A stretch of DNA of 64,000 nucleotides from Psilocybe cubensis. Its lineage: Eukaryota. Under the pieces are notes generated by a model. The model did no database searches. It saw nothing but the letters and a program-made list of their open reading frames with translations, and was not told where the DNA came from. Below, piece after piece: positions 42,234-61,659 of this stretch. The DNA is taken from the NCBI GenBank assembly GCA_017499595.2, contig CM039010.1, positions 310,001 through 374,000 on the forward strand. The letters are read 5' to 3'. How positions within the stretch are numbered: position 1 is the first letter of the stretch; every line of letters starts with the position of its first letter. The position numbers and the translations under genes were made by a program.

Positions 42234-44556
42234 CTATACTAGTGCTACTCGATGCACCGCTGCTTTTTTCGTCCAGATTTCCTTGTTATGCACCCAATCT
42301 TCAATATGTTGGGTCCAGCGACCTATCCTTTGAAATTTGTCAGTTTTCCTGACAGGTTCCAATATCAATCCCCGATGTTTGATATGTGGCTCAGAATCGT
42401 GACCAAAACGTTCACTGAAGGAGCCGATAAACAAACAGTAGACAACGCCACCAGAAGAGCTTGCGGCCGTGGAGGTATCGTAATCCAGATGAAGGGAGTT
42501 GAAGACACCATATCTAACAGAGAGTATGTTTCTCAGGTATGCTGGTGGGCGTGGAGCTGTTGGATGGTCTTTCAGAGTTATCGCACACAGTGCTCCTTCA
42601 ATGACGGCGCATCCTCCTTTGACGATTCCATATTTATTTTCGCCGTCAACCTCGACTTTGACGCTTATGATTCGGGTTCTTGGATCCTGTCTGTAACTTG
42701 TCACCCCAGCCCATTCTGCGAGTTTTGGCTTGGTTTCATATTCCCATTCCATTCCGCATGCGGATTCGTCGCCACCCCAAGTTAGGGATGCCCAGGACCA
42801 TGAAGGTGCAGTCGTATTCCGTTTTCTTGTAGGTCCAGCGGTTTGTGTACCACCTCCAGACTCCCATAAAAGATCACGGACAAAGTCTCCCTCCCATAGC
42901 CCTGCAAGATATCTCTCATTCTTGGGAAGATACTTTGCAAATCTGGATGCCAACCCGGCAAGTGCTGGAAGTCGATCGGATTCGTACGTCAAGTCCAACA
43001 AAGTCATGTCCTCGACTATTGTTCGCCAAAGGCCATACAACGCCTTGATGTCTCGTTTACTGGTGCCCTCGAGTTTCACAACCTGGTCCTTACTTGCACT
43101 CCATCCGTCTCCATGAACAGGATTTCCATCGAGGGATTTGCACTCGCATCTCTGGGAAACATTACATACCCATACCATCTCATTTGCGTGGAAGTGCACT
43201 GTTCGTGTCGATAGGAAACGTTCTTGGTATACCCAACCGCGTGGCAACAGAGGTGCGGTATCGCTATGATATCGGATCCAACGAGGTGTCTGCAGGGCTT
43301 CATGGCATCTCCATGGGCACCAGGTACTATCAGTGATTTTACTGGCGCTTTCCGCATCTTGGACGGAGGGTTTTCTCTCCTCCTTCCACTTGACACGGCT
43401 CTTGTAAATTCTGCAGCCCACTTCAGTGTATCTCGGAGAGTCCATCTGCTGCCTAGACACCCTTCATGGCCGCCACCGGCTCGCGTAGTGGCGATGTTTA
43501 AATAACATCGACTATATATGTCGGCCATGACAGCGCTTTGCTGCTCCCAATCCAGCTTGTCCTGTTGAATGATACAAAGGGAATCAATCCAGATGTACTG
43601 TATGTTCAAGCCTCTGGTGATTGCAATAGCGTCTTGGAACGTTTTGGGCAATTGACCCCAAGGTATACCTCTCATTCGGTCTGCGATGGTATCCCGAGTA
43701 GTCGTCAATAACTGTTTCTTTCCCCAGCAGTGACTAAGTGCAACGTAATGGCCACGTTGTCCTGTCGAAGATTCGATGAGGCGAACGCTGTCTCCGGATA
43801 TATCAAGAACGCGTCGAGGAAGAATTTCCGCTTGATTTTCAGGTCCATTCCACTCTCCTCGACATGTTCTGTGGTTTCTGTCACACTCCAACAGCCACCC
43901 CTTAATGACTTTAGCACAGTCCGTTGCTGTTGGCCGAGTCGGGACTTCACCCGCTGCCCCAATTGACTGGTATGAAGAAGGCCTGCCTGGATCTAATCAG
44001 CATCTCTTGGGAGCTTGCTCACAAATGGACAGAATCTACCTTCAAAAGGTGTGTACAATTCAACCTTGAACTCTTCCCGGAACCCATCTTCCTCTTTTCC
44101 TTTGATCGCAGCTCCGCACCTCATCATTACAATAAGTCCTTTCGACCCGTCAGACTCTTTGGTGCCTGTCTTCTTGTTTGGTCCGTTAGTACTGGGCTTT
44201 TCGTCGTCTCGGTCTAGAATGGCAATAGAGTAACTGATTTCGGAGTCTGAGGGTGCATCGATAAGCTCGCCGTCACGCACAAGGGTGTCGAAGGCAGACT
44301 TTAGAAGGCGGCAGGATGGACAATTGCTATCTTTGGCCAGATCAGTGCTCGAAATCCATTGACGTGCAGCTTGGCCTATGGAGCAGAAGTTGGGGTCTTT
44401 GTGAGGCTGAGGAATGTAACGGAGATCAAGATCAAAGCAAGTGGGACACTTTGCACGATTGCGTGGCCGTTTACTGTCAGTACGCACTGCTCTAGGGCCC
44501 TCGTCTGGAGGGCCAACATATACTGGCGGCTCCCAGACTCCTCCTTTCCTTGGCAT
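42234..44556 (-). CDS. HET-domain (heterokaryon incompatibility, TOL/HET-6-like) protein with an apparent frameshift near 43310
   Basis: LPRRVLDI, YVALSHCWG, LPKTFQDAI, YIWIDSLCIIQQD..DWEQQSAVMADIY; in the next frame PLLPRGWVYQERFLS, DRLPALAGLA, YLAGLW, APSWSWAS. One intron near 44030-43988. Confidence 0.88.
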
Positions 44557-45153
44557 GATGCAATGACGCAGAGAAGGCTACGATTTGGCACGCGAGGGGC
44601 CACAGATTCAAAGCGAGGCCCAAACGCTCATGCATCATGAAACTATTGATTATGTATACACTTATTTGGAGACTTCGGGAATGACCACTATGCCGACTCT
44701 AAAGTCCTGACCATGAAGTCCCAACCTTGAGTTTCAAAATAGTGCTCTTTGGCTCTAAATTTTATTAAATTCGTAACGAGGTTTATTTGCATGGTAGCAT
44801 AGTCCACCAACGTATCATATGGCATCGTCGGGGAGTCCATCTCGCAGCCTCGCTGGTCTTTCAAACCGTACAGTATCATTTCTAATACCTTGAATGATTG
44901 AGTATCAGGCACTCAGAAAGTAAAACATCCCTAGGCAAGAGGCTCACAACCTGATATTGCATTGAAGGTCAAATGAGCGAGGCCATTGAGCTTATTTCGA
45001 AAGTGATTAGTATCAATAAACAAAGCGTCGAAGCCATCAAAGCGGGCCAGTGAGTGGCAACATAGCGCACCCGCTTTGACAATACGAGGCCCTGTACCGT
45101 ACCTATTTATTCTCGATACAACGGCAAGTTTTTTTGATTTCGCATTCACTATC

Positions 45154-45894
45154 ATGCCTAAAGCCCCAGGAGACAAGAGGCCCCCAAATGCCTGGATTCT
45201 CTTTCTATCCGCGAAGAGGAGGGAGCTGGTAATCCCTTCCATCCCTGGAGAAAGTGTCCATGACAAGTTTACTAGAACCATAAGGACGATCTCCGCTATC
45301 TGGAAGGCGACTCCAGAAATCGAAAAAACTACATGGCGCACGGCCGCAAAGGAGGCAAAGCACAGGCATTTGACTTTATACCCTAATTACAAGTTTAAAC
45401 CTTATAGAAAGTCCCATCATAAATCCCTCGCACATAGCGCAGTCGCCTCGCCTCAAACCATCTCTTCTCCATCTTCTCTACAAACTGCTCAAACAAATGG
45501 AGAGAGTACTCCAGGTTGGGCCTCATCTGTGCTCTCTGGTAACGACTTTGTTCCAGTATCCACCCTTGTTTACGAAAATTTTGATGGACTACACCGCCCA
45601 CTCGTAAAAAATGGAAATTTCCAGCAAGATCTACTGGTCAATTCCGAACAGCCTGGAGAATCGTTCTTTGAAGACTGGTTGCAGCTCGATGAGAAGCTTG
45701 ACTCTTCTTGTGGAAACCACTTATCCACCGATTACCGCGACCACTTTTACTCCGATGAAGACACTGTACGTCCCCGGGATAGCGCCGAGAATGCTCAATC
45801 AAAAGAAAACAGTATTTGGATGGGTAATAATTTTGACGACCCAGGAAGGGACGCTCATCCTGTCCAACAGTACACTTACTTGAATCTCAACTGA
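45154..45894 (+). CDS. HMG-box transcription factor (MATA/SOX-type)
   Basis: KRPPNAWILF...ISAIWKA...WRTAAKEAKHRH..LYPNYKFKP; intronless. Confidence 0.88.
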   Translation: MPKAPGDKRPPNAWILFLSAKRRELVIPSIPGESVHDKFTRTIRTISAIWKATPEIEKTTWRTAAKEAKHRHLTLYPNYKFKPYRKSHHKSLAHSAVASPQTISSPSSLQTAQTNGESTPGWASSVLSGNDFVPVSTLVYENFDGLHRPLVKNGNFQQDLLVNSEQPGESFFEDWLQLDEKLDSSCGNHLSTDYRDHFYSDEDTVRPRDSAENAQSKENSIWMGNNFDDPGRDAHPVQQYTYLNLN

Positions 45895-46491: not shown

Positions 46492-48908
46492 ATGTTGCTG
46501 CGTTCTATCCCTTACATTCTTTCAGCTATAGCCGTTGGATATGCTGCCCCTCAGGTCAAACTTGGTAAAACCACGCTCGTCGGCAGGGACATTACCGAGC
46601 TGAAGTTGGATTTCTTTGGAGGTGCGGAGTTGACAGTCCTACGATCATTTGTGAAATCCTTGTTTGATTAATAATTACATGTTACATTCAGGGATTCCGT
46701 TTGCTGAACCACCCTTGGGCAAGTTGCGACTGAAACCACCCGTGTTAAAAACAAAGCTGGACGAGAAAACATTCGACGCCAGTAACTTCGGTAAAGGTTG
46801 CTTTCAACAGGTGAATAAGCAGCTTGATCCCCTCCCCCGTGCATTATATTAATATGTGAATTACTCAGAGCAGCTCTGTAACCGAATTCTCTGAAGACTG
46901 TCTAACCATCAACGTATACCGTCCATCGGGACTTAAATCAAATGCAAAGCTTCCCATCGTGAGTCCCGGCCAAAGAAAAAGAATTGTTAACTAATACATC
47001 TCCAGTTGTTCTGGACGTAAGCAATTTTTATATCTTAAGCTACCTTGTTGACTGCATATAAAAGTCCAAAATTTCTAGATACGGAGGAGGATTTGATGCT
47101 GGGGAAGCCTCTATCTACAACGGGAGTGCTATCGTCGCCCAGAGTGTCGCTCGGGTACGTTATTCCCTATCACTTTCAGGATCATAGCAGCCTCATACTG
47201 TCAACCTTAGGGTACACCTCTCATCTACGTGAATTATAATTATCGCCTCGGACCTCTTGGATTTCCTCAGGGGCAGGAAGGTACGTGATGTATCATCATC
47301 AATACTCTCTATTCTTACACCTTCATTGTCACTTCGGAAGCTGACGATCGCGGTGCCCTAAATTTGGCATTGAGAGATCAGTTGACGGCATTGGAATGGG
47401 TACAGGCAAACATCCATTTCTTTGGAGGTGACAAGTCGAAGGTATGATCCAAGGTACTCTTCCAGGTTTCATTACTTAAACTACAGGGCATTCACATCAG
47501 GTTACTGTCTTTGGTGAAAGTGCCGGTGCAATCATGACTGCGATTCTATTTTTGAATTCTCCCTTGGATAAATTGGCAAGAGCAGCAGTGAGTAACCTGA
47601 TATCTGGAATATTTTGTATCTTTGTGTAGCTGACTAACATTGCGAAATCTGACAGATCTTCGAATCAGGATCTGCTGCGACTCCTCAAGAGTTTAACGCG
47701 GAACGTCGTGAAATAGACTGGCAAAACTTTGTGGCTGGGGTACCATCTTGCGCGTCTCTTGCTACGAGTGGGAATACATTTGACTGTATTCAAGCTGCCA
47801 ATTCCACAGAAATTTTCTCAGGCGTCATTAACGGTCTTACGAAAGCCAACGAAGCCTTTGGATATGATCCTACGTTTGACGGCCCGAACGGTCTCTTCCC
47901 AGATATTGCTTCCAAATTTCTTTCCTCAGGACATTTCGCTCGTCTGCCATTCATAACTGGTACAAATCTTGATGAAGGTGGGTACTTCAACGATTCGTAT
48001 CTTCTCATTTCAGAAGAGACTTATAAAATCTGCAATGCCAGGTGCTGTATTCACCCCAACAACTATTCAGTCCGCGGCCGATATCGAAGCTTTCTTGGTT
48101 GCTGGATACTCGCCTCTTGCAGTCAGCCCAGCTGCTTTCGAATCCACCGTCGCGAAACTGTTGGAGTTATACCCTGATGACCCTGCCCTCGGGTCCCCAT
48201 TCAACACTGGCAATCAGACATTTGGTTTAAATTCCAACTTCAAGCGGGCAGCAGCCCTATGTGTGTTTGCATCCTTGTACATTCTATGCCAAGTACCAAG
48301 ACTAACTAATATTTATTTAGTTGGTGATCTCGCTTTCCAAGGCCAGCGCAGAGCCTGGATACAAGCCGCAAGCCGCGTAGGGGTGAAGACATTCGGATAT
48401 CTTTTTACTCAACCACAGCCAAACAGCGGCCCCTTTGGTGGTACGTAGCGTTAAAATTTCTTTGTAATTCCATACATTGTTTGGTTTATTTTCATCAATC
48501 GTAATCTTCATCTAACTTGTTATTGATCGACAGTCTTCCATGGATCCGAGGTTCCATATGTCTATGGAGCACCGAGCGACACATCTGCGTCCTCATTGCG
48601 CATCAGCAGTCTCATGATCGACTACTGGGTCTCATTCGCAACGTCGCTTGACCCCAACGATGGCCGCGGTATCCCACGTACGTCTGCCTTGCCCTCATTG
48701 ACATTACCCCGTCCCACACAACGCTGACATCCTAATCTTTGCACCAGGTCCACACTGGGCACAGTATACCCCCGAGAACCAAGTCATCATGCAGCTCAAC
48801 GGCGACAACACGACGCTCATCCCAGACAACTATCGGAAAGAGCAGATCGCGTTTATTAATTCGGACCCTGCTGTCTTCCATCAGCGCCGCTCTATAAACA
48901 AGAGTTAA
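46492..48908 (+). CDS. Secreted type-B carboxylesterase/lipase
   Basis: GIPFAEPPLGKLR, SEDCLTINV, YGGGF, NYRLGPLGF, FGGDKSKVTVFGESAG (nucleophile Ser), GTNLDEG, HGSEV. Confidence 0.92.
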
Positions 48909-49735: not shown

Positions 49736-50555
49736 CTAAGATATCCCAACACCGGCACTCAAGGTACCTTCTTTCGTGCGATTAACGCAATCGAGCCCGT
49801 CCATCGAGTCCATCCAGTCATTCATTCTCTGCCCATATTCATGCTCCAATACACCCGATATCCATTCCGGCAAAGGGCGTAAATCAGCCAAAATAGGGAA
49901 AAGATAAAAGTCTGCATAGGTAGGGTGTGTGTCGGTAAACATGAATTTTGGATAGCTAGAACGGGACCCAGGTAGGACGGTCTCGGTTATGGATAGGAAG
50001 GTGTGCAACTGGGGAATGTTGTGTGCGAGAAGGGGTGTAATGGCATCTGAGGCGAGACCGGATTCAAGGTGTTTTAGGCGGGGTTTGACAAGGCCGTGCT
50101 CAATAGTTGGGAATCCTGTAAGGCAAAAAATGCTCAATACTTGAATAAACTTGACGGATATTCCGATGTATAACCTCACCATATGATGATACGAAGCTCA
50201 CGTATTCCCACATCTTCTCTTCGAGTATCCCTTTACCAAGAGAGAACTCATCATAATGCAGTGTTGGATTTGGTTTGATGCGATCGATGTAGCGAATGAT
50301 CGCCTGAGTCTCACACAACTTTACTGAGTTATCCTCATACCCCTCCTTCCCGTCATCCACTCCCTTCGATTCCTCGATAATCAACGTGGGTATAATCCCA
50401 AATGGATGCGCAGTTTTTGCCTCTTCAGAATGGGGATATACTTTGATCTGAGTGAAATCTAGGGATTTGTATAGCAGAGTTAAAGCAATGGTACGAGTAA
50501 ACGTGGAGAAGGGAGTTCCAACAAGTGTATATCTCGTTGTCTCTCTGGAAGACAT
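49736..50555 (-). CDS. Glutathione S-transferase-like protein
   Basis: STFTRTIAL, HPFGIIPTL (cis-Pro), LCETQAIIRYID, PTYADFYLFPIL; two exons. Confidence 0.85.
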
Positions 50556-50806
50556 AATAAGGCGAGTAAACCCGTTTGTAGGAGTAATTAGACGGAAATC
50601 GCGTTGATGTGAAAGTAGGTGGAAATGCACATGACCCTTAGACGAGCTTATAAAGTTGGAAACCCAATTTCTATTTCCATTTCGGTCACTATTTTTACAG
50701 GGGAGAAGCAAGAAGCGGTAAAATTCGATGCATTGAATACGGATCTCGCTTTGCCATTTTCATGACTAAAATTGAATGGTAAGGTACTGATAACGAGGTA
50801 GTAAAT

Positions 50807-51710
50807 TCAATGTGCAAAGACGCTGAGGTCAAACAATTTGGATGCTGATACATCAGTATATTGATGTCCAACGGCCGTATTCCATCTGTTGAGTTGTGTT
50901 AATAGCTGTACTAAGTATCATCAGGGCCACCGTGAACATACCCTCCAAATGGAGTTCCCAAGGTCAGAGTCTGTAAGATGAATTGATCATGAACAAGTTA
51001 TCTTATCTAGAAACCGGCCACATCTCAGGTGCTTACCTCGACATTGTTGTAAGTAGCAAACCAAAGAGGGGCAGTGTTATCAAGAATAAAGCCTGTGGAT
51101 CCAAAGAGAGTCCCCCATTCCTGATATAATTAATCAAAATAACCCCCGCCTACGATGAATGAGACCATACCCCAGGAGAGCTATAGATACCAAAGTTGAA
51201 CCCGCTGTTTTTCATTGCCTCCAATAAAGATCTGGCTTGCTGTTGATTTCCGGATGTGCCATAGTTCCACTCCTGACAGTTAGAACAAATACATCTTGAA
51301 ATCGATAACAAATTAGTATTTACGTTGTTGCAGATAGCCGCGTCTTTCTCAAAATCAATCCAAATAGTACCAATGTTCATTGAATGCGCTTTGAAGGTTT
51401 GGGCAAGCTCGGATAGCTGTGTAGCATAGGATTTGCATTTGTTTCCGGAGCCATTGCACGGGAACCAGTACGTGTCAATGTCGGTATATCCCGCTGATCG
51501 AGCGTTGTTGTACGATGGCACGAAGTTAGGGTCTACTTGACCTCCGATACCGCAAGCCTCTTGATATCCGCGGATGATTGCCTTAGTGAAGCCTTCAGCA
51601 CGGGCCTTCTGATAGGTGGCCACAGGGACGAGGCTTGCAGAGTCGACTGCGTGCACCAATGCGTAGGACGAGACGATGAGCCCAGAAAGTAATAGAAGTG
51701 ATCGAAACAT
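50807..51710 (-). CDS. Secreted GH25 lysozyme, copy 2
   Basis: Paralog of 40481-41377 (IIRGY, VDPNF, YWFPC, IWIDFE) with the same intron layout. Confidence 0.85.
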
Positions 51711-52332
51711 GGGGGTCAGTACTCTGTATTTTGTGGAAAGGGTTAAAGGTGCGTGCCATTTTATACAGAAATCTATGTATACAGCATTTCTGAGGCTCCA
51801 CAGCGCCGAACTTCAATGAATAATGAAATTTCACTGAGCAACAAAACACGTTTACCTTAATATCTTTATGGTATAGTTCAGCCTGATATTTGAATTAAAG
51901 CTGATGTTAACCAGCGGTTCACTTCATTTATGTCAGAGCTTCATCTGATATAGTGGAATGATGTATTCATTTTAACAACGCTATACACTTAGCTTCGAGC
52001 TAGTAAATATCCATCATGAACATGAGACAGATTGGCTTAAAACTCCGAGTCATGATTAAGACAGAAGCCTGAAGGACGTATATATCTTTATGAGTTGTTA
52101 TGTAGTTGAGCGCTGAGCGCTTGTGTTCCAATTGAGCCGACGTCGGCATATCGCGGTTGAAATGGCACCGATCCCGAGAAATATGGTAATTATGTACAGA
52201 GTTGTCACTCAAGGATGACTTTGCATCAGAAGTATCCAAAGCTTTTATAATTATCACCAACGGTCAATATCCAACATGCATTATACATAGAATTAACTTT
52301 GAAGGAATAACTTCCGCTCAAGCTTAGTAGAA

Positions 52333-54078
52333 CTACTCGCTACTATCGGGGAGACTCCATACTGGGTCATGATATTCAAAGACCTTATTCAAGCCTCCGG
52401 TGACGGCAGGGGCGACAAACTGAGAAATGCCCGTAGTGCGGTCATATTTCTGATATGACGAAGCTAATCGCTTCCCCCCTCCTCCAGGAAGATCAACAAT
52501 GAATTGGGGCATCATGAACCCACCAATACTACCCCGGATTTGCGTCTCTAGCTCGAGGATGGTGGATAATGGAGTGCGCAAATCTTCGACGCCTCGGACC
52601 ATGTCTCCTTGGTAAACATAGTACTAAACAGTGAAATACAAATCAGCCGACATTTGAGGTACCCGGAAGCGAACACCTTACAGGCAGAATGTTGATGTCC
52701 GCCAAATCGCAGATTAATTTTTTCATGACGTCGACACTGTCATTGACCCCCCGAAGAAGAACTGTTTGGTTTCTGACAGTGACTCCGTTTTCGAAGAGCT
52801 TCTGAGCAGCAAGCTTTGTGACCCAAGTGATTTCGTTTGGGTGATTGAAATGAGTGTGCATGGCCACCGCTTTACCCATTTTTTTACCCTTGTTAGATAT
52901 CTCAATCAACGCGGCGCTCCAGGGGTCATGTGGGTCCAGGATACGAGATGGGCACACCGCAAGTCCTTTGGTGGCATAACGGAAACGTCTGATATGAGGT
53001 ATGGCGAGCAAGCGGTTCCCAATATCATAAAGTTGCTCGGGAGAAAGATAAAATGAATCACCGCCCGAGACCACGATGTCGTTCAATTTTGGTGTTTTCT
53101 CGATGTAATTAAAAACTTCATCCCAGCGACGCTTGGTCGGCTTCAAGGAGTTTTTTGTGACAGTACTGGTGTTCGCTCCCACTGCGTAGGATCGGGTGCA
53201 GAAGCGACAATAAACATTGCAAACCGATGTAGCTTCCGAGCCGAATAGTCAGAAAGATGCCGAATAATCAATAAAAAAAAAATCTTACCGAGGAATAGAG
53301 CCTTCGTCGGGTATCGATGGACGAGTCCTTTGACTGGCGAGTCATGCTCTTCGTTGAGAGAATCGAGTTTGAGTTTATGGTGGTCTGGAATTAGTTCATT
53401 TCCCATTGGAATGAACTGGCGACGGACTGGATCGTCGATTGGATTGGTCCAGTCAATAACACTCAGGATGTGGGGCGTTAACCGAATAGCCATTGGAGCT
53501 CTGGATATTGCGTCAGAAACGCTGTCAATGAACGCTTCTGGAGTGTTGATGCCTATTATATGAGGTAGCGCCGTTCGAGATGGAGGGATAGAGGGCGGTA
53601 GAACAACAGACAGGAATTCGCGCAACTTCTTCTCTCCCTGCACACTGTTTGAAAGCTGCCGGCGCACGATGTTAGACTCGGACAACTTCGTCATGAGAAA
53701 AGCAGAGAAACACACCTGCCATTGGTAGTTAAGAAATTCTTTGTGAGTGACTTCTTTCCAGAGAGGTATATTGGTCCAGTATGGATAATGAATAAGATCT
53801 GATTCTGAGCCAAGGAGGTGTTCCGTATGATGTTTTATCGCTGAGTCGCCAAAATTCCCGATAAACCGTCCATTTTCAGGAGCATCTGGGAAAGCATGAT
53901 GTTCGGAAGGCAAGGCAGTTGCACGACGCTGAGACGAGGTTTTGGCGAACTGAACGCAGGAATTAGTTCGAAAGCTGCGGATTGAATTGCTGACAGTTGC
54001 TGAAGAGGGATGCTGGAACATGTCCAAAGTCGCCATGGGGGAAATTCGAGGATATTTGAGCAAGTTAGTGAAGACCAT
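52333..54078 (-). CDS. kamA: L-lysine 2,3-aminomutase (radical SAM/PLP, KamA family)
   Basis: DPVRRQFIP, SPVKGLVHRYP, spliced CNVYCRFCTR (CxxxCxxC), VVSGGD, THFNHPNE, NQTVLLRGVND, YYVYQGD and FIVDLPGGGGK (PLP lysine). The start codon is uncertain (54078, 54036 or 54021). Confidence 0.93.
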
Positions 54079-54607
54079 TGTTGTATAAGGAAACGAAAAT
54101 GTCTGAAGATGTTCCACTCAAGGAGACGATCAGAATGTTAGTTCAGACTCATGCTTTATGCTCATTTTATACTGTGGGCAGACCTTACCCCTAAACGCAA
54201 TTCGCCAGACGATTTGGAATCTGGATGATCATGGAATATGGAGCATTGGTTCAGGGAATACGCCGGACACATAAATGGAAGCACTGGCGAGCTCCTGGAA
54301 CATGGGTTTTTGCGTGCAATAGTGAGAGAAGTGAGTAATAAATAGCTCTGCCGAACAAGCTACTGAGCTCGATTGCCATATTTAACCCTCCGCTGGCCAT
54401 TTTCGATGTGACTATGTTGAGGAGAAGAGAGAAAAACCCCCGAAATGTCGTCATGAACATTAATTAACTGCTTCTCAATTCTCTCACCATTGGTCAAGGA
54501 CCGTCAAATGGTCCGTGGTTGGCATATGTGTAATTTTTATTGCTCCCATAGGATGTTCCATGATTTATAAATGGTGAATTAGAGCGTGAGTTGAACAACC
54601 CCCCAAA

Positions 54608-55880
54608 ATGCCGTCCAACAATTCCCCAGGTTCTCCACCCCCACTGAAAATAGCCTTCACATATGACTCTCGATCTGAATGGCTAGCACGGGGATTTTCT
54701 CCTGAGCAGTGTGCCGAGTTTGACAGCGACAAAACAATCGAAGGAATCGCTATTTCGCTGAGAAAGCGAGGTAGAGTGCAGATGGTTGGGGGATTGAAAA
54801 ATCTCGTTACAACCCTCGCTACCTCCAAGCCCGATTGGGACATTGTTTTCAACATCTGTGAGGGCTACGGAAGTCCGGGTCGAGAAGCTCAGGTTCCTGC
54901 ACTTCTTGAGGCATGGGACATACCGTACACCTTTTCTGACTCAGCCACGCTGGGTTTATGTTTAGACAAGGCCAAAACGAAGGTGAGACCCACGTTTGAG
55001 TGATCATTTAGCTTTATAATTTTGACTTTAAGCATATAGATGGTACTCGATCATTACGGCGTACCTACTGCACCATTTGCATGTGTTCCGCCTAGAATTA
55101 CATGGGCGCGAGAAAGCGTTTCTCACAAAGTCGTAATCAGCAAGTCTCCCCACGCCACAGCGTTGCAATCATTTCCTCTTTTCGTTAAGCCTGCTGGGGA
55201 GGGCACGGGTTTGGGAATCGCCCAAGCTAACAAAGTTACTGATGACGAACAACTCGCAAAAGTCGTCGACGACCTGACTCAGCGTTACCCAACACAAACA
55301 ATCCTGATCGAACGATTCCTTAGGGGACGCGAATTTACCGTCGGCATCATCGGGACAGGCGCAGAAGCTAGAGCAGTTGGGGTCCGAGAAATAGTTTTCC
55401 TCAAAGGTAATCCAGGGCACCACATCAATCCCAACACTGTATACACCAGCACGGATCCAACCCTTCTAGAGGTGGACGTGTATGGTTACGACTTGAAGCG
55501 TGTCAGCCACCCAAACCCTCAATACGTTGAACTCGATTTATCCGGTGACCCGATAGCACAGAGAGTGGCAGAAGTCGCCGTAAGGGCCTGGATATGTCTA
55601 GGATGTCGTGATGGTGGTCGTGTAGATGTTCGCAATGACTCCGAGAGTGACGATGCAATTCCGAATGTTATTGAGGTGCGAAACTCTCGCCCCGGAGCGC
55701 TGAAGCTCTGATGATTAAAGTATCACTCACCATACTCGATAGGTGAATCCGCTTGCAGGCCTAGCGCCCGGTTTTTCCGACTACCCCCTTCTTGCAGAAG
55801 CCAATGGTATTATGTACGATGATCTAATCTCCATGATCATAGATGAAGCGTTGAAGCGCAGTAAGTCAGTAAACGCATAA
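54608..55880 (+). CDS. D-Ala-D-Ala-ligase-like ATP-grasp amino acid ligase
   Basis: IVFNICEG, REAQVPALLE, IPYTFSD, LCLDKAKTK, FPLFVKP..EGTGLGI, IERFLRGREFTV, GRVDVR, spliced IEVNPLAGL. Introns 54983-55039 and 55676-55742. Confidence 0.9.
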
Positions 55881-56356: not shown

Positions 56357-59300
56357 ATGGTCGACAACGAGCGTCATATAGAGCCGCAGAAGGAGAGTGA
56401 AGTGAAGAAGCCTGTGCGTTCACGCCGGTTTCTTTATGCGCAAAGAATTGACTTGGATGGTTTATACAGCTTATCCATCCTTCAATGAACAGTGGTTATA
56501 AACCTGGGTCCGTACTCTCATACGCACACGACTGGTCTCCTAATGGAACTGGAGGATCGATTGCGGCCGAAGGACGTCATTTCTTGGACATGTACGGTCG
56601 TGTTTGTAGCTTGAGGGGTGTTAACTTGTCTGGGACCTGTAAAACGTGCGTTGTCATCCATACAAATACGCATCTAGTATATAACCTTCGATGCAGTCCA
56701 GTGGACCATGACCATGAAAACTTCCCCGGAGACCACAAGTCAGTGACATTCGTTGGGAAACCATTTCCACTGGAGGACGCGCAAGAACATCTCTCTCGAC
56801 TGCGACGCTGGGGGTTAACTTTTGGTATGTTTCCTCTCTATATATCCACCAATACTAAACAATTGTGCAGTTCGTTTCCTGGTTACATGGGAAGCCGTAG
56901 AGCACGCAGGACCGTACGTGCTGACGACAGAGAGCTTCATGGCACTTACATTTTTAAAGAGGAATCTACGACACAGAATATCTCACTTACGTTCGGGCTT
57001 TGCTGTCCATGTTTCCAAAATACGGCCTCTCTGCCTTTGTGTCGATGCATCAAGACGTGTGGTCACGGTATTCTGGGGGCTCAGGGGCGCCGGCGTGGAC
57101 TCTGGAAACAGTGGGCTTTGATCTGCATGCAATAGAGGAGACAGGTTCTGCTTGGCTGCACGGGCAGCGAGGTGGAGGACATGTTGAAGCGGAGCGTGGT
57201 CTGTGGCCCTGTGGATACCACAAGCTCACTGCTTCAACGATGTCGTGAGTTGCGGCTTTTTGTTTTATTAAATCCCCGGCTGAGTCCCTCAGGACGTGTT
57301 TCTGGGCAGGTGATATATTCGCTCCAAAATTGCTGGTTAAGGATAAACATGGTCAAGAAGTGTCGATCCAATTCTTCCTGCAGACATGTTTTCTTGATAT
57401 GTGGGAGATGGTGGTTAGGGCAGTGGGCGACTTGGACGGTGTCATTGGCTTCCAAGTGAGTAATATGTATCTTTAGAATGATGACCTTTCAGACAAATCA
57501 TGTAGATGATCAATGAACCTCATCCAGGCTACGTGAATGTCGATTTACACGCTTTCAATTATAATACTGATCTTCATCTGTCTCATATACGTATGTCCAT
57601 GTCCGGGATTGTCCCTATCTCTTTTAATGACGCAGTTTGTAGCATCTGCTTTTCAATCGTTCCAACTAGGCGCAGGATACCCAACACTAGTACCCACTTA
57701 TACCCGTTCATTCCCTATGCCCACAAAACTCACTTCCTATACTACGCTCAACACTGCTAAAGTCAAGGCCTGGCGCCCGGATGGACCAACAAAAGGGAGA
57801 TGCCTATGGGAGTTCCACGACGTGTGGCGGTGGAATGAAGTTACTAATAAGGCTGTTGTCCTACGGGAGAATTATTTCCGCAAGCATCCTGATACCGGCG
57901 CCAAGGTAAGTTCACCCAGAATTGTTGCACTACAACTGACGTTTTTGCTTAGATCAACTGGTATACCGATATGTACTACCCCTTCGCCAATAAATGGAGT
58001 GAAAGGATTAGAAAGGCGTCGTCTCCTTCGAAGCTCGTTTTTTTGGAACCTCTCCCAAATGAGGTACGCAATTGGTGAATGCAAGATGTTGGGAATAATT
58101 TATAATTTTGCACAGTTCTGTCCCAAATCTTGGACGAAGGAAAACCAACCTGCTAATATGGTCTTCGCACCTCATTGGTAAAGGCACTTTTTTTGTCAAT
58201 CCAGTGTGCAGCTCATCTCGATATACCCAGGTACGATCTCAACGCTCTTTTTGCCAAGGCTTTTGGTGATTTCACCGTAAATGTGCAAGGCCTCTCGCGT
58301 GTGAGTGAATTCGGCTGCAAATATCGTGGTATTTGTCATTAATCGTGTGTTTAGGGCATGTTCCCTCTCAAGGCCTTCTATTGGGGACACTTGGGGGCCC
58401 GCGAGAACTTCTCCCTCCAAATTCGCAATATTGTCGAAAACGGATACAACTCTTTAGGAGAGACTCCTGTTCTGATAGGGGAATGTGGTATCCCTATGGA
58501 CATGAAGTAAGTGTTACTCTCGAATATTGAACTTTGGCATCCTAATTATTGACGGCCGAACGCAGTAAGAAGGAAGCCTTCGAGACGGATGACTTCATCT
58601 GGCAGACCAGAATGATGGATGCTATGATCACTGCATTAGAGAATTCTCTTGTCGGCTTTACGTGCGTCGCATCTCTTTTCCGGATGGAATATCATAGACG
58701 GTCCTCTCATCCTCTTTGTCATAGATTATGGAACTACAACCCTGATAATGACGACGAAAGGGGCGATGACTGGAACGGCGAAAACTTCTCGTGGTTCAGC
58801 AGCAAGCGAGCCCTCCCCAAGTCCGTACTGTATTATGAACAGGACGCCCCTTCATTAGACAATGGAGGCAGAATACTTCCTGCTGTTGTCCGACCTTACC
58901 CAGCCAAGACAGCAGGAATTCCTCTCCGCTTCCGGTACGAGATGAACACAGGAACGTTCGTCTACGAGTGGATGAACCCCGAAGCCATTGTCTCAGGCAG
59001 TGATGATAACTCGAGCCCAAAGTCTGGGTCGCCCAGCGTGTTCGATCCACCACGCACACTGCGCCGCCCCCTCATCTCTAGAGAGACTGAAATCTTCCTT
59101 CCATCGATGCTCGCACATTCAAGGAGGGTTATTGTTGAAGGTATCAAGGACCAAGCGGACGAGTATCAGTATGACGAGAAGCGGCAAACGTTGTTCGTCG
59201 TCATGTCCGATACAACACCTGGGGTCAAACATCGCATCAGAGTGTCATTTGACCCCCCACCTAAACCAGCCTTCATTGTCAATGACTTATGGAGCGATTT

Positions 59301-59373
59301 TGGTTCTCACATTCTTTCTGGTTTAGTCGTTCTTTTGGCACTTACGGGGTACTGGTTGTTAAGTAGTATTTAA
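56357..59373 (+). CDS. GH5 subfamily 12 beta-glucosidase (EGCrP2/steryl-glucosidase-like) with C-terminal TM anchor
   Basis: LRGVNLSG, FVGKPFPLE, RFLVTWEAVEH, HQDVWSRYSGGSGAP, NEP (acid/base), GECGIP (nucleophile), WNGENFS, VRPYPAKTAG. Confidence 0.88.
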
Positions 59374-59457: not shown

Positions 59458-60444
59458 TTAAACGTTAGTTTTCTGAAGGTCTCCAACTTTAGCACGGTAG
59501 GAAAGAGCCTGAAGCACGATGTTCCGAGACTCAATCAACTCGTGCCACAATTCTTTGTTATAGTGTCCCAACACAACGAGATTGTCGCGAAGTGCTGTCA
59601 GCTTGGCAGCAGTGGATAACAAAGGGTCTTCCCGGTCCCCCAAGTCAAGTTGCAGAGCGGCTTCTGCAATCTCAGCCGCAACAGTATAGAATGACCTTGC
59701 TGATTCGCAAGCATCTTTGGGCGGGCGGTGCCCTCGACCTAAATCAGGAACCAGTCTCCCAAAAATCCTTTTGGCTTTTGAAGTTTCCATAGAGACAAGG
59801 CCACAGCTAGAAGTCGTCGTATCCAGGTCGGACATGATATTCATCGCTTGCGGGCTTTGTGGTAAAGGATGAATGAGGTCGCGAACCCATTCTGTAATGA
59901 TCGACCGGAATAGCGCAGCCTGGTTCTTAGTATGCAAATAGACCATAAGCTCCGGGAACGTTTCAAGATGTGGGACATGCAGTAGAACCTTTGGAAGCTC
60001 GTTCTGGAGACGCGGTGGCAGGATCGCCAGGTCGCCAAACGAGCCATTGGGGATCAGGTTGGGCACGTTCACTAAGAACAAAAGGTCGTTGATCGGAACT
60101 TCAAGTACCTCCGGTAATGTAGGGGCCACCATGGTTCTGCAACGAGTATCGCGGAAAGTGTTCAGTCCGTCGCGTTTTTGCGCTCGGGAATACGTGTTCT
60201 TGGTCGGTTGGGAAGCATACACCACCAAAATATGTGTGGGCCCTAATTGTCGTGGAGAGATCAATTTGTCCAATGTGCTTAGGTTTGGAATACCTGTGGC
60301 CTCCATTTGAGCGGCAAGAGAGGAACAACTGGACTGAGGCACGTCCAACGCCGATGCAGATAGGACACGTCGTCTCACTCCTTTGGCTGTGCACCGCTTG
60401 GTAGCATTTTCTTCGCTATTTTTGCTGTTGGAACTACTTGTCAT
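59458..60444 (-). CDS. Clampless-1 (Clp1)-like basidiomycete protein
   Basis: PTHILVV, LPKVLLHVPHLETFPELMVYLHT and LRDNLVVLG...ELW resemble Clp1-family blocks as I recall them; intronless. Confidence 0.5.
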   Translation of the reverse strand: MTSSSNSKNSEENATKRCTAKGVRRRVLSASALDVPQSSCSSLAAQMEATGIPNLSTLDKLISPRQLGPTHILVVYASQPTKNTYSRAQKRDGLNTFRDTRCRTMVAPTLPEVLEVPINDLLFLVNVPNLIPNGSFGDLAILPPRLQNELPKVLLHVPHLETFPELMVYLHTKNQAALFRSIITEWVRDLIHPLPQSPQAMNIMSDLDTTTSSCGLVSMETSKAKRIFGRLVPDLGRGHRPPKDACESARSFYTVAAEIAEAALQLDLGDREDPLLSTAAKLTALRDNLVVLGHYNKELWHELIESRNIVLQALSYRAKVGDLQKTNV

Positions 60445-61659
60445 GGCACCACCAAACGTCGAGAAACGTTTGCTAATATGCTCTCCAACCTTTACATCCT
60501 GTATGCTTTGGGTGAGATGCAACCAATGCCTACTTGATTATTAGGACCTAGGTGTGTGGCATGAACGACTAGTGTACTTACGTTTGGGAGGACCCGAAGC
60601 GCAACTTGAGAGATTGTCTGATCTCTTCTATGTTCGCAGTGGACTTGAAAAGGTCTTCGCGATCAGGCGCAACTTGGATAAGCATGGATCTGTTTATCTC
60701 GCGTTCTGCAGGAATTCGAGAATTTGGCTTCTGGCCATCGAGGCTGGGGATGAGGGCTAAAGTAGGAACTGTAGTGTGCATGGCCGGCATGTCGACTTAG
60801 AAGAATAGTGGTGGTATAGTAGTTAAAGGAAAGTTTATGAGTTGTATCTCTTTATATATTCTACTCGGCTTGCGTTGTGGCACAGAGCCTTAAACCTTGA
60901 AAACAATGGCCCAACTATGAATTACGGCCATTATCTCGAAATGAAATGGCACTCACGGCTAATGTAAATTACGGAGCAACAAGTCATTGTTCGACCACTA
61001 GATCACCACAATTCACAGTTCCAATACAAGTTGAGCCATTGGAAACCTTTGAGCAGAAACAAAAGTCATTGAAACCTCGATAGCTCATACACGCAAAGAA
61101 GCACAAATCGGGCTCAAGCAAAAATGAAATACTTTAGATTCTTAGGTTAGAGACGAGCTGCTGAAAACCCGCAAATCCTATCATGGCTACTATAACCAAC
61201 TTTGAGACCAACAACGAGGGACTTTTATATTAGCTGTCGCTTTGGTGATCTCCAACTTTATTGGTAGCTGGATCAGGTACCGTCTGTCCGAGCTTGGCTC
61301 GAACTCTGCTCTTAGATGTTGAAGGTCGGGAGAATTCTATTTGTTATCAAGCCATGAAAACAGGACCCGGGAAGCTCCCCTAGAGGTCTGTCCGCTTTTT
61401 GCGGATTTGAGGGCCAAAATTTGGCCAAATCATTGTCCTACTTTTGGCGGATTTGAGGGCATTTTGACCCAAGCATTGTCCGCTTTTTGCGGATTTTAGG
61501 GCCAATTGGACAAGATTTTTTCAAAAAATTTTCATCATGTCGTCCATTGGAAACCGTGCCCTAAAAAAGCTGACTATCGTCGTTACTGACGTGATGCGGG
61601 AATTTCCATAGAATTCCATGGAATTTAAAAATCACGTGTTACACATGGTACACGTGCCT

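Follow-up and report, generated by a model that had tools for sequence, protein, structure and literature searches.

What use has a mushroom, which contains no peptidoglycan, for an enzyme resembling D-alanine-D-alanine ligase (Ddl), and why should the gene for such an enzyme lie head to head with one for a protein of the lysine 2,3-aminomutase (KamA) family? We have addressed this question for a 64,000-nt stretch of Psilocybe cubensis DNA (hereafter the window; contig CM039010.1 of assembly GCA_017499595.2, positions 310,001 to 374,000), in which positions 52333-55880 hold two intact, divergently transcribed genes, one for a KamA-family protein on the minus strand and one for a Ddl-like ATP-grasp ligase on the plus strand. 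In the aggregate, our observations tip slightly in favor of a conserved fungal two-gene unit, in which KamA would form beta-lysine and the ligase, as a non-Ddl enzyme, would build a beta-lysine compound from it; the substrates, product, compartments and co-regulation in this scheme are those that we infer from the comparisons described below.

The gene models are summarized in Table 1. The KamA model has three introns and a product of 523 amino acids, and the ligase model has two introns and a product of 382 amino acids; all five introns are of the spliceosomal GT..AG type, and neither spliced frame contains an internal stop when the models are translated. The KamA start was placed at 54078, where the open frame has its first ATG, and the N-terminus predicted from there aligns with that of the P. 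cyanescens orthologue; the public annotation places the start at 54036. With these 2 starts, the distance from start to start is 529 bp or 571 bp, in agreement with the first-pass annotation of this DNA, which had described two intact, intron-containing genes placed head to head about 530-590 bp apart. Several observations bear on the splice sites. The 20 residues that KamA intron 1 would encode are missing from all 9 aligned homologues, splicing across KamA intron 2 gives a gapless alignment to homologues, and the exon break at ligase intron 1 is the same in fungal contigs L088 and L089. Also, coding exon 3 of KamA matches P0001, the annotated product of the KamA gene, which is recorded under the name Psilocybe cubensis, with 100% identity.

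Table 1. Positions of the KamA and ligase gene features in the window
Feature	Positions	Strand	Remarks
KamA coding exon 1	53716..54078	-	open frame from ATG 54078; N-terminal extension
KamA intron 1	53656..53715	-	60 nt, in frame, GTGTGT...GGCAG
KamA coding exon 2	53289..53655	-	N-terminal domain to 'HRYPTKALFL'; NCBIfam KamA models match
KamA intron 2	53233..53288	-	56 nt, GTAAGA...GGAAG; splits codon after first base
KamA coding exon 3	52682..53232	-	radical-SAM core, CNVYCRFC (C248/C252/C255), R257; PF04055 and TIGR00238 matches
KamA intron 3	52624..52681	-	58 nt, GTAAGG...TTTAG
KamA last exon	52333..52623	-	D434 (YQGD), D471 (IVD), PLP lysine K478 (PGGGGK); stop 52335-52333
Divergent intergenic region	54079..54607	.	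529 bp (571 bp with start 54036); candidate shared promoter
Ligase exon 1	54608..54982	+	N-terminal domain, 'IAFTYDSRSEW...AEFDSDKTIE'; ATG at 54608
Ligase intron 1	54983..55039	+	57 nt, GTGAGA...ATATAG
Ligase exon 2	55040..55675	+	ATP-grasp core; PF07478 at 6.3e-19
Ligase intron 2	55676..55742	+	67 nt, GT..AG; spliced out in public run X1
Ligase exon 3	55743..55880	+	C-terminal helix; stop 55878-55880

We compared the locus with four public runs, whose cover is limited to positions 55197-55770, with KamA uncovered. Ligase exon 2 is matched from 55197 to 55673 by contigs of both X1 and X2, and in one X1 contig 55675 is followed directly by 55743, precisely at the GT..AG borders; the ligase gene is thus transcribed, and is spliced as modelled at this intron. 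It should be noted that the runs matching the locus carry no RNA label on record, and that X1 is the single run showing RNA. When three divergent intergenic regions were compared, those of the window and of the metagenome contigs L089 and L090, they had two 8-mers in common and no longer match; shuffled sequences give up to five, so that the regions have no common motif above the chance level. Elsewhere in the window, the neighbors of the pair include HET, HMG box, carboxylesterase, GST and GH5 C-terminal domain frames, together with unassigned frames.

Alignment of KamA to the Clostridium subterminale lysine 2,3-aminomutase (structure 2A5H) matched C248, C252 and C255 of the CxxxCxxC motif with C125, C129 and C132, K478 of PGGGGK with the PLP lysine K337, and R257, D434 and D471 with R134, D293 and D330, respectively. 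This alignment bears out the first-pass claim that the motif, the PLP lysine and both acidic residues are kept. We take R134 to hold the carboxylate of lysine in 2A5H, and D293 and D330 to hold its side chain. The equivalents of Asp293 and Asp330 bind the lysine side chain in the Clostridium enzyme and differ in glutamate 2,3-aminomutase. All 10 myxobacterial and all 69 operon KamAs compared keep the 2A5H-type active-site residues, as do 25-26 of the 26 eukaryotic KamAs. At the zinc-site position C268 of 2A5H, KamA has serine, its 45-residue tail is free of cysteine, and the LAM_C model matches only 24 of its residues, under the cut-off of that model.

The family models gave a less specific answer. 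As a whole protein, KamA (P0001) passes TIGR00238 for the general KamA family, with 246.6 bits against a cut-off of 199.2, and falls below the cut-off of every substrate-specific NCBIfam model: the AblA/KamA equivalog TIGR03820 scores best (258.1 bits, cut-off 525.4), followed by the glutamate model TIGR04368 (199.2 bits, cut-off 650) and the arginine model TIGR04468 (194.2 bits, cut-off 600). The assignment to lysine therefore rests on residues and not on family membership. One could suppose from this, and from the placement of eukaryotic and myxobacterial KamAs apart from the others on a long branch (length 1.38, support 100), that the pathway is real and that its aminomutase acts on arginine, ornithine, a lysine derivative or a peptide-bound residue, with a product other than a beta-lysine compound; indeed, the arginine and lysine models are equal at 119.7 bits when only the radical-SAM exon is scored. 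We consider this improbable, since over the whole protein the AblA model leads the arginine and glutamate models and since the equivalents of R134, D293 and D330, whose roles we assume as stated above, are conserved throughout. Judging from these residues, KamA most likely forms beta-lysine (3,6-diaminohexanoate) from L-lysine. The N-terminal extension of the protein resembles a mitochondrial presequence, and 17 of 19 eukaryotic KamA homologues have a presequence-like N-terminus by composition, the one property scored; these observations suggest that KamA resides in mitochondria. In the literature searched, we found no study of a eukaryotic KamA-family aminomutase.

The ligase matches Dala_Dala_lig_C (PF07478) above its cut-off when searched as exon pieces. 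The predicted model of its P. cyanescens orthologue, P0121, which is 76% identical, has a pLDDT of 93, and its top matches among solved structures are all Ddl folds, with TM values up to 0.83. Relative to Escherichia coli DdlB, the ligase keeps K97, K144, E180, K215, R255, D257, E270, N272, G276 and S281. In contrast, it has the substitutions H63E, E68R, Y216R, L282D and S150T, and the N-terminal 'GGxSxE' motif with E15 is replaced by a motif specific to the family. The D-Ala site of DdlB presumably consists of the E15 motif, H63, S150, Y216 and L282. Two acidic residues are added in the ligase by these changes and would suit a cationic substrate. Against the NCBIfam Ddl and Van models, the window exons gave partial matches only, the best score of P0121 was 124.8 bits against a cut-off of 243, and the Orbilia and Aspergillus members were likewise below every cut-off.

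By these criteria, which are those of sequence and predicted fold, the ligase is a Ddl-fold ATP-grasp enzyme but not a true Ddl, and the first-pass view of a Ddl-like enzyme without a canonical task is upheld by the failed models and the altered D-Ala site. Several fungal records annotate the protein as 'D-alanine--D-alanine ligase'. That the enzyme is a genuine D-amino-acid dipeptide ligase, acting on environmental D-amino acids and unrelated to KamA, would accord with these annotations and with the Ddl fold of its nearest solved relatives, but we regard it as very improbable in view of the failure of all Ddl, Van and related models, the replacement of H63, Y216, L282 and the 'GGxSxE' motif, and the nature of its bacterial sisters, which are partners in KamA operons and not cell-wall genes.

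The latter point emerged from the bacterial relatives of the ligase. The ligase N-terminal motif (TYD.R..., AEFD, TI) is the consensus in fungal and bacterial members alike, and KamA lies directly upstream of the ligase relative in 70 of the 80 best bacterial loci; the ligase thus belongs, as the first-pass annotation had stated, to a Ddl-like subfamily encoded beside bacterial kamA. The gap between the two bacterial genes is -246 to +186 nt in 61 of 68 measurable loci, and the 2 proteins are fused in P0148 and P0178 (by Pfam) and in 6 further representatives. Altogether, 589 loci tie the ligase family to KamA in hundreds of bacterial genomes. A published pathway that combines KamA with an ATP-grasp or Ddl-like enzyme, or a report of beta-lysine in Psilocybe, was not found in the literature searched. 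One published screen examined PF07478 for transfers into eukaryotes, and no link to KamA was found in it; the supplements of that paper may list these genes (PMC5169069).

The pairing recurs in fungi. Metagenome contigs L089 and L090 show the divergent layout of the window, and across these three the pair alone is conserved, with differing flanks; no neighbor gene of the window is conserved beside the pair in the other fungal contigs compared. In P. cyanescens, a single contig of 8.6 kb carries tags 008063 and 008065; in Dactylellina haptotyla, tags H072_4 and H072_5 adjoin; and in Orbilia oligospora, the KamA and ligase tags are 2 apart in all 10 strains for which both are listed. One further gene thus falls within the pair in P. 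cyanescens (tag 008064) and in O. oligospora (tag g319). In Galerina, KamA and the ligase each occur in two copies, with each KamA-ligase pairing on contigs of equal recorded size, and in P. cubensis both genes are duplicated, every copy being recorded on a contig 2.30 Mb in size; adjacency in Galerina, and the place of the second pair in P. cubensis, are judged from these equal contig sizes only. Adjacency is thus found in Agaricales and in Orbiliomycetes, which represent two phyla.

Not every fungal genome conforms to this arrangement. In Calcarisporiella, KamA and the ligase are on different contigs, and in contigs L092 and L093 an intact KamA adjoins a mere remnant of the ligase. Also, the taxa overlap in part only: many fungi among the KamA matches listed are missing from the ligase matches listed, and vice versa, although each list holds the best 120 matches and a mismatch between the lists does not show absence. 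Such exceptions would be expected if KamA and the ligase were functionally independent, with KamA in a stand-alone role, like that in most fungi and in Myxococcota-type genomes, the ligase acting on other substrates, and their adjacency an accident of history or of regulation. The bacterial KamAs nearest to the fungal one, which stand alone and are not enriched in ligase-bearing genomes (see below), and the differing compartments that may apply to the 2 proteins point in the same direction. We nevertheless judge independence to be unlikely, if the weightiest of the alternatives, because it leaves unexplained the adjacency in two phyla, the conservation of the pair amid changing flanks, the duplication of both genes in Galerina and P. 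cubensis, and the bacterial operons with their occasional fusions. The linkage of these families separately in bacteria and in fungi is evidence for a joint function.

We also asked where the fungal pair came from, using trees with EpmB as the outgroup for KamA and the second ligase of the bacterial cassette (described below) as the outgroup for the ligase. The fungal KamAs and the fungal ligases each fall in a fungus-wide clade (support 99). The fungal KamAs group with stand-alone KamAs of a Myxococcota-type phylum, to which they are 46-55% identical, and apart from the operon KamAs of the cassette, which form a clade of their own (support 98). The fungal ligases are sister to the first ligases of the bacterial operons (support 99 for the joint clade). 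The best non-fungal relatives of the ligase are bacterial, with 38-48% identity; Myxococcota-type ligases reach 48%, but they scatter among other bacterial ligases in the tree, and for this reason no ligase donor can be named. Among 10 loci encoding the bacterial KamAs nearest to the fungal one, none has an adjacent ligase gene, and 6 loci of 14-16 kb around myxobacterial-type KamAs share no conserved neighbor, so that their context gives no hint of function. Within the Myxococcota-type phylum, this KamA type occurs in 10 of 27 ligase-bearing genomes and in 140 of 401 genomes overall, and is not enriched in the former.

The first-pass annotation had proposed a bacterial source for the module, to be checked through phylogenies and gene neighborhoods. 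Linkage in other fungi was borne out, apart from Calcarisporiella, but a common origin of the 2 genes was not: both families form fungus-wide clades, with KamA placed among the stand-alone type and the ligase beside the operon type. Since KamA and the ligase group with different bacterial lineages, the fungal pair is a mixed combination, seemingly assembled by fungi themselves. It is probably old, to judge from these trees, and not a recent import from bacteria. A recent transfer into the mushroom, or contamination of the assembly by bacterial DNA, might be suggested by the mainly bacterial distribution of both families and by the bacterial relatives of the ligase, but we find it scarcely credible for a locus that has five spliceosomal-type introns, one seen spliced, and fungal-type neighbors (HET, HMG box, GST), and whose products both lie inside fungus-wide clades, with no bacterial relative above 55% (KamA) or 48% (ligase) identity.

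The two-gene unit that we favor could operate as follows. KamA, as a radical-SAM, PLP-dependent aminomutase, would convert L-lysine to beta-lysine in mitochondria. The ligase would then activate a carboxylate as the acyl phosphate and join this to an amine; its substrate would most likely be beta-lysine, and the product an amide of beta-lysine or a dipeptide or isopeptide containing it, for which the first-pass annotation had proposed a role in defence or as an osmolyte. Should the two enzymes lie in different compartments, KamA in mitochondria and the ligase in the cytosol, beta-lysine would need to be exported between the two steps. A fuller version, which we put forward tentatively and with distinctly less assurance than the unit itself, is that fungi independently united the KamA and ligase lineages, and so re-created the bacterial pairing, and that the unit makes a beta-lysine dipeptide or isopeptide in Psilocybe, Galerina, nematode-trapping Orbilia and others; beta-lysyl-lysine may serve as an example of such a product, by analogy with PylC.

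These observations place the KamA family across fungi, with putative mitochondrial presequences, and give it a conserved partner ligase, which yields a defined pathway of two enzymes that is open to testing in a well-studied mushroom. Having no NRPS or PKS, the pair would probably be passed over by standard cluster finders. If the scheme is correct, this would be the first fungal small-molecule pathway built on a radical-SAM aminomutase, and it would offer a eukaryotic route to the function of a widespread bacterial cassette; a solution of either the fungal or the bacterial system would explain the other.

How, then, does the fungal pair compare with known systems? It is closest to the cassette of bacteria and archaea in which KamA is accompanied by a GNAT acetyltransferase and by two Ddl-like ligases of the ATP-grasp type. 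The first of these ligases is the sister of the fungal one and has its N-terminal motif and active-site pattern in common with it, and in both systems the partner of the ligase is a KamA-family enzyme with lysine-type residues. The fungal KamA differs in belonging to another subfamily, the fungal genes are divergent, intron-bearing and unfused, and the lid region of the fungal ligase is longer by an insertion of about 25 residues. A second ligase or a GNAT protein was not found in the 64-kb window or the fungal contigs, where 27 second-ligase queries and one GNAT-bearing query matched one ligase gene only.

With the Clostridium enzyme 2A5H, and with AblA of the AblA/AblB route to N-epsilon-acetyl-beta-lysine, the fungal KamA shares the cysteines, the PLP lysine, the carboxylate arginine and both aspartates, and AblA is its best-scoring NCBIfam equivalog. 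It differs from these enzymes in the serine at C268 and the lack of the C-terminal cysteine-bearing domain, and from the AblA/AblB system in its N-terminal extension and in having a ligase, not an acetyltransferase, as its partner. DdlB (2DLN, 1IOV) resembles the fungal ligase in fold and in the residues for ATP, Mg and phosphoryl transfer, whereas the fungal protein fails the Ddl models, is altered in the substrate site and has its bacterial relatives in a KamA operon. In the EpmB/EpmA system for beta-lysylation of elongation factor P, a KamA-family enzyme likewise supplies beta-lysine to a ligating enzyme, but EpmB is the most distant model for the fungal KamA (172 bits against a cut-off of 369), and EpmA is a paralogue of lysyl-tRNA synthetase and not an ATP-grasp enzyme.

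The PylB/PylC pair offers another parallel. PylB is a radical-SAM lysine mutase, and PylC is a Ddl-family ligase that joins the mutase product to the epsilon-amine of lysine, so that here, as in the scheme proposed for the fungal pair, a radical-SAM rearrangement of lysine is followed by Ddl-fold ATP-grasp ligation of the new diamino acid. PylC gave a weak match to ligase exon 2 (E = 4.7e-4) and was not among the solved structures matched by the ligase family profile at E <= 0.01, and PylB, unlike the fungal enzyme, is no KamA-type PLP enzyme. The resemblance to PylB/PylC is one of working logic and not of membership.

The window segment 52333-55880 contains two divergently transcribed genes, one of the KamA family and one encoding an ATP-grasp ligase, with start codons separated by 529 or 571 bp (see the table). 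KamA exon 2 is 100% identical to P0001, the annotated P. cubensis KamA protein, which carries the NCBI name L-lysine 2,3-aminomutase of Psilocybe cubensis. The first KamA intron, at 60 nt and in frame, reads through, and the 20 residues encoded by it are missing from all 9 aligned homologues. We also observed that the public model P0001 (window 53289-54078) begins at the second ATG and drops, by means of a 45-nt "intron", a 15-residue stretch kept in P. cyanescens; this "intron" looks wrong. Likewise the paralogue model P0005 is without the CxxxCxxC segment, probably because of a mis-called intron. As for the ligase gene, a contig of the public run X1 joins position 55675 to 55743 exactly, that is, without ligase intron 2, which shows the gene to be transcribed, with splicing in agreement with the model; KamA had no coverage in the same run. 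In two protein searches the listed matches did not include the ligase encoded in the window itself (54608-55880), the best match being the P. cyanescens orthologue P0121 at 75.6% identity, so that the public record may lack an annotation of the gene or may model it wrongly. Long frames at 42237-43463, 51153-51812, 56452-57132 and 59461-60537 gave no Pfam family match.

Coordinates of genes, introns and related loci (window positions unless a contig or genome is named)
Feature	Position	Strand	Remarks
KamA-family gene	first ATG of open frame 54078, public annotation 54036; stop 52335-52333	minus	product 523 aa
KamA introns	53715-53656, 53288-53233, 52681-52624	minus	all three GT..AG
ATP-grasp ligase gene	ATG 54608, stop 55878-55880; introns 54983-55039, 55676-55742	plus	product 382 aa
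Neighbour	43079-43996	minus	HET domain
Neighbour	45007-45891	plus	HMG box
Neighbour	47653-48174	plus	carboxylesterase piece
Neighbour	49739-50759	minus	two-exon glutathione S-transferase
Neighbour	58546-59370	plus	GH5 C-terminal domain
Ligase remnant and KamA, L092	5442-5703, 7346-8841	same strand	~1.6 kb apart
Ligase remnant and KamA, L093	6001-6262, 7910-9408	same strand	~1.6 kb apart
Tandem fused ligases	G290:C7:129868-131868; G082:C188:20007-22013; G296:C60:1646-3724		

Several fungi keep the two genes together. Two fungal metagenome contigs (L089 and L090) show the same divergent layout as the window, and between these and the window the pair alone is conserved while the flanks differ. 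KamA and ligase share one 8.6-kb contig in P. cyanescens (tags 008063 and 008065), have adjacent tags in Dactylellina haptotyla (H072_4 and H072_5), and lie two tags apart, hence with one gene between them, in all 10 Orbilia oligospora strains for which both tags were listed. In Galerina both genes are present twice, and the members of each KamA-ligase pairing are recorded on contigs of equal length. P. cubensis also carries both genes a second time, recorded on a contig equal in size. Three observations count against linkage: KamA and ligase are on separate contigs in Calcarisporiella; the taxa bearing the two genes overlap only partially among the matches listed (at least 120 each); and the near-identical fungal metagenome contigs L092 and L093 carry an intact KamA beside a mere remnant of the ligase gene, comprising parts of exon 1 only, in which the partner gene is apparently decaying.

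Scanning a single genome for each species gave 589 bacterial loci with relatives of the ligase. Among the best 80 of these, KamA lay directly upstream on the same strand in 70, and a second, distant Ddl-like gene lay downstream in 27; we refer to the two Ddl-like genes of this cassette as first and second ligases. The KamA-ligase gap was -246 to +186 nt in 61 of 68 measurable loci, negative values stemming from liberal choice of start codons. The Desulfosarcina genes run in the order KamA, ligase 1, ligase 2 and then a protein of 751 aa that has GNAT at its end, and KamA-ligase fusion proteins were also found. Some Myxococcota-type genomes have two Ddl-like domains within one open frame of 753-891 aa, and further metagenome proteins have the ligase fused to GNAT or SET domains.

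P0001 passed the cut-off of only one family model, the general KamA model TIGR00238 (246.6 bits, cut-off 199.2), and was below it in every substrate-specific model (score/cut-off in bits: AblA 258/525, Glu 199/650, Arg 194/600, EpmB 172/369). Its sole solved relative is the Clostridium lysine 2,3-aminomutase 2A5H (E = 1e-65), to which it aligns with all of the cluster cysteines (three), R134, D293, D330 and the PLP-binding K337 retained, residues whose roles are described in the literature. The same columns are kept in 25-26 of 26 eukaryotic, 10/10 myxobacterial and 69/69 cassette (operon) KamAs. In P0001 the zinc-site cysteine is replaced by serine and the C-terminal cysteine-bearing domain is missing. 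Eukaryotic KamAs have an N-terminal extension of 37-100 residues, which in 17 of 19 members is basic, rich in Ser/Thr and almost without acidic residues; from this make-up we infer a putative mitochondrial presequence. The ligases have no comparable extension.

Exon 2 of the ligase matches Dala_Dala_lig_C, and the whole P. cyanescens orthologue was below cut-off in all Ddl and Van models (top score 124.8 bits vs 243). Relative to E. coli DdlB, the residues for ATP, Mg and phosphoryl transfer are retained (K97, K144, E180, K215, R255, D257, E270, N272, G276 and S281), and H63 to E and E68 to R are changed family-wide. L282 is D in the window ligase, as in 80/80 bacterial first ligases and 13/30 fungal rows; Y216 is R, a variable position elsewhere (R in 4/30 fungal rows, mainly E in bacterial ligases). 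At the N-terminus "TYD.R.E...AEFD" stands in place of the "GGxSxE" motif, and the fungal enzymes have ~25 additional residues in the lid region. The predicted structure of the P. cyanescens orthologue is confident (pLDDT 93) and its top solved matches are all Ddl enzymes; structure searches found no solved member of the ligase's own subfamily.

The first-pass annotation had the module come from bacteria. In ligase trees of 106 rows, and of 77 rows without the long Aulographum row, with second ligases as outgroup, the fungal sequences (29-30 named fungi and 2 metagenome rows) formed a single clade (support 99), sister to bacterial first ligases. Its order runs approximately from early fungi through Ascomycota to Basidiomycota, with Amanita and Metarhizium as exceptions; these two ligases (P0133 and P0252) fall among Eurotiales instead of their own classes, a hint of transfer between fungi. 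The 87-row KamA tree held named eukaryotes, selected representatives, 10 myxobacterial KamAs, a random 10 of 66 operon KamAs, 3 fusions and a further Desulfosarcina KamA (Des_L083), with EpmB from E. coli as outgroup. A single clade (support 99) took in every one of the 26 named eukaryotic KamAs as well as 5 unnamed representatives, and it joined stand-alone KamAs of a Myxococcota-type phylum in a wider grouping (support 100, branch length 1.38). Operon KamAs were a separate clade (support 98), and the two fusion KamAs outside it also fell outside the eukaryote plus stand-alone clade; a 180-row FastTree was concordant. The stand-alone subfamily is the nearest bacterial kin of eukaryotic KamAs that we found. 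The Physarum polycephalum transcript P0020 lies within the fungal KamA clade beside Orbiliomycetes, suggesting either a transfer or the presence of RNA from a fungus in the material sampled.

KamAs 46-55% identical to P0001 (residues ~63-493) occurred in 140 of 401 genomes of the Myxococcota-type phylum, counted from the listed rows, and the stand-alone KamA was not commoner in the ligase-bearing ones (10/27); operon KamAs reach 33-41% identity at most. No ligase was found within 1.5 kb of the stand-alone KamA at 10 loci (L096-L105), nor any conserved neighbour in 6 longer loci. Since each gene forms a supported fungal clade, both are probably old in fungi. Judged from these sequences, the fungal pair looks to have been assembled from two lineages and not imported whole.

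We consider the two-step beta-lysine pathway proposed in the first-pass annotation to be the best explanation of the pair, the strongest argument being the separate linkage of these families in fungi and bacteria; their partial overlap in fungal distribution is among the weakest points of this reading. The aminomutase would turn lysine into beta-lysine, which the Ddl-like enzyme would then ligate, in an ATP-dependent step, to give a beta-lysine amide or dipeptide. In the literature library searched, no published study of such a KamA and Ddl-like ligase pair was found. PylB and PylC provide a working analogy for the two enzymes, and this analogy suggests beta-lysyl-lysine as a candidate product.
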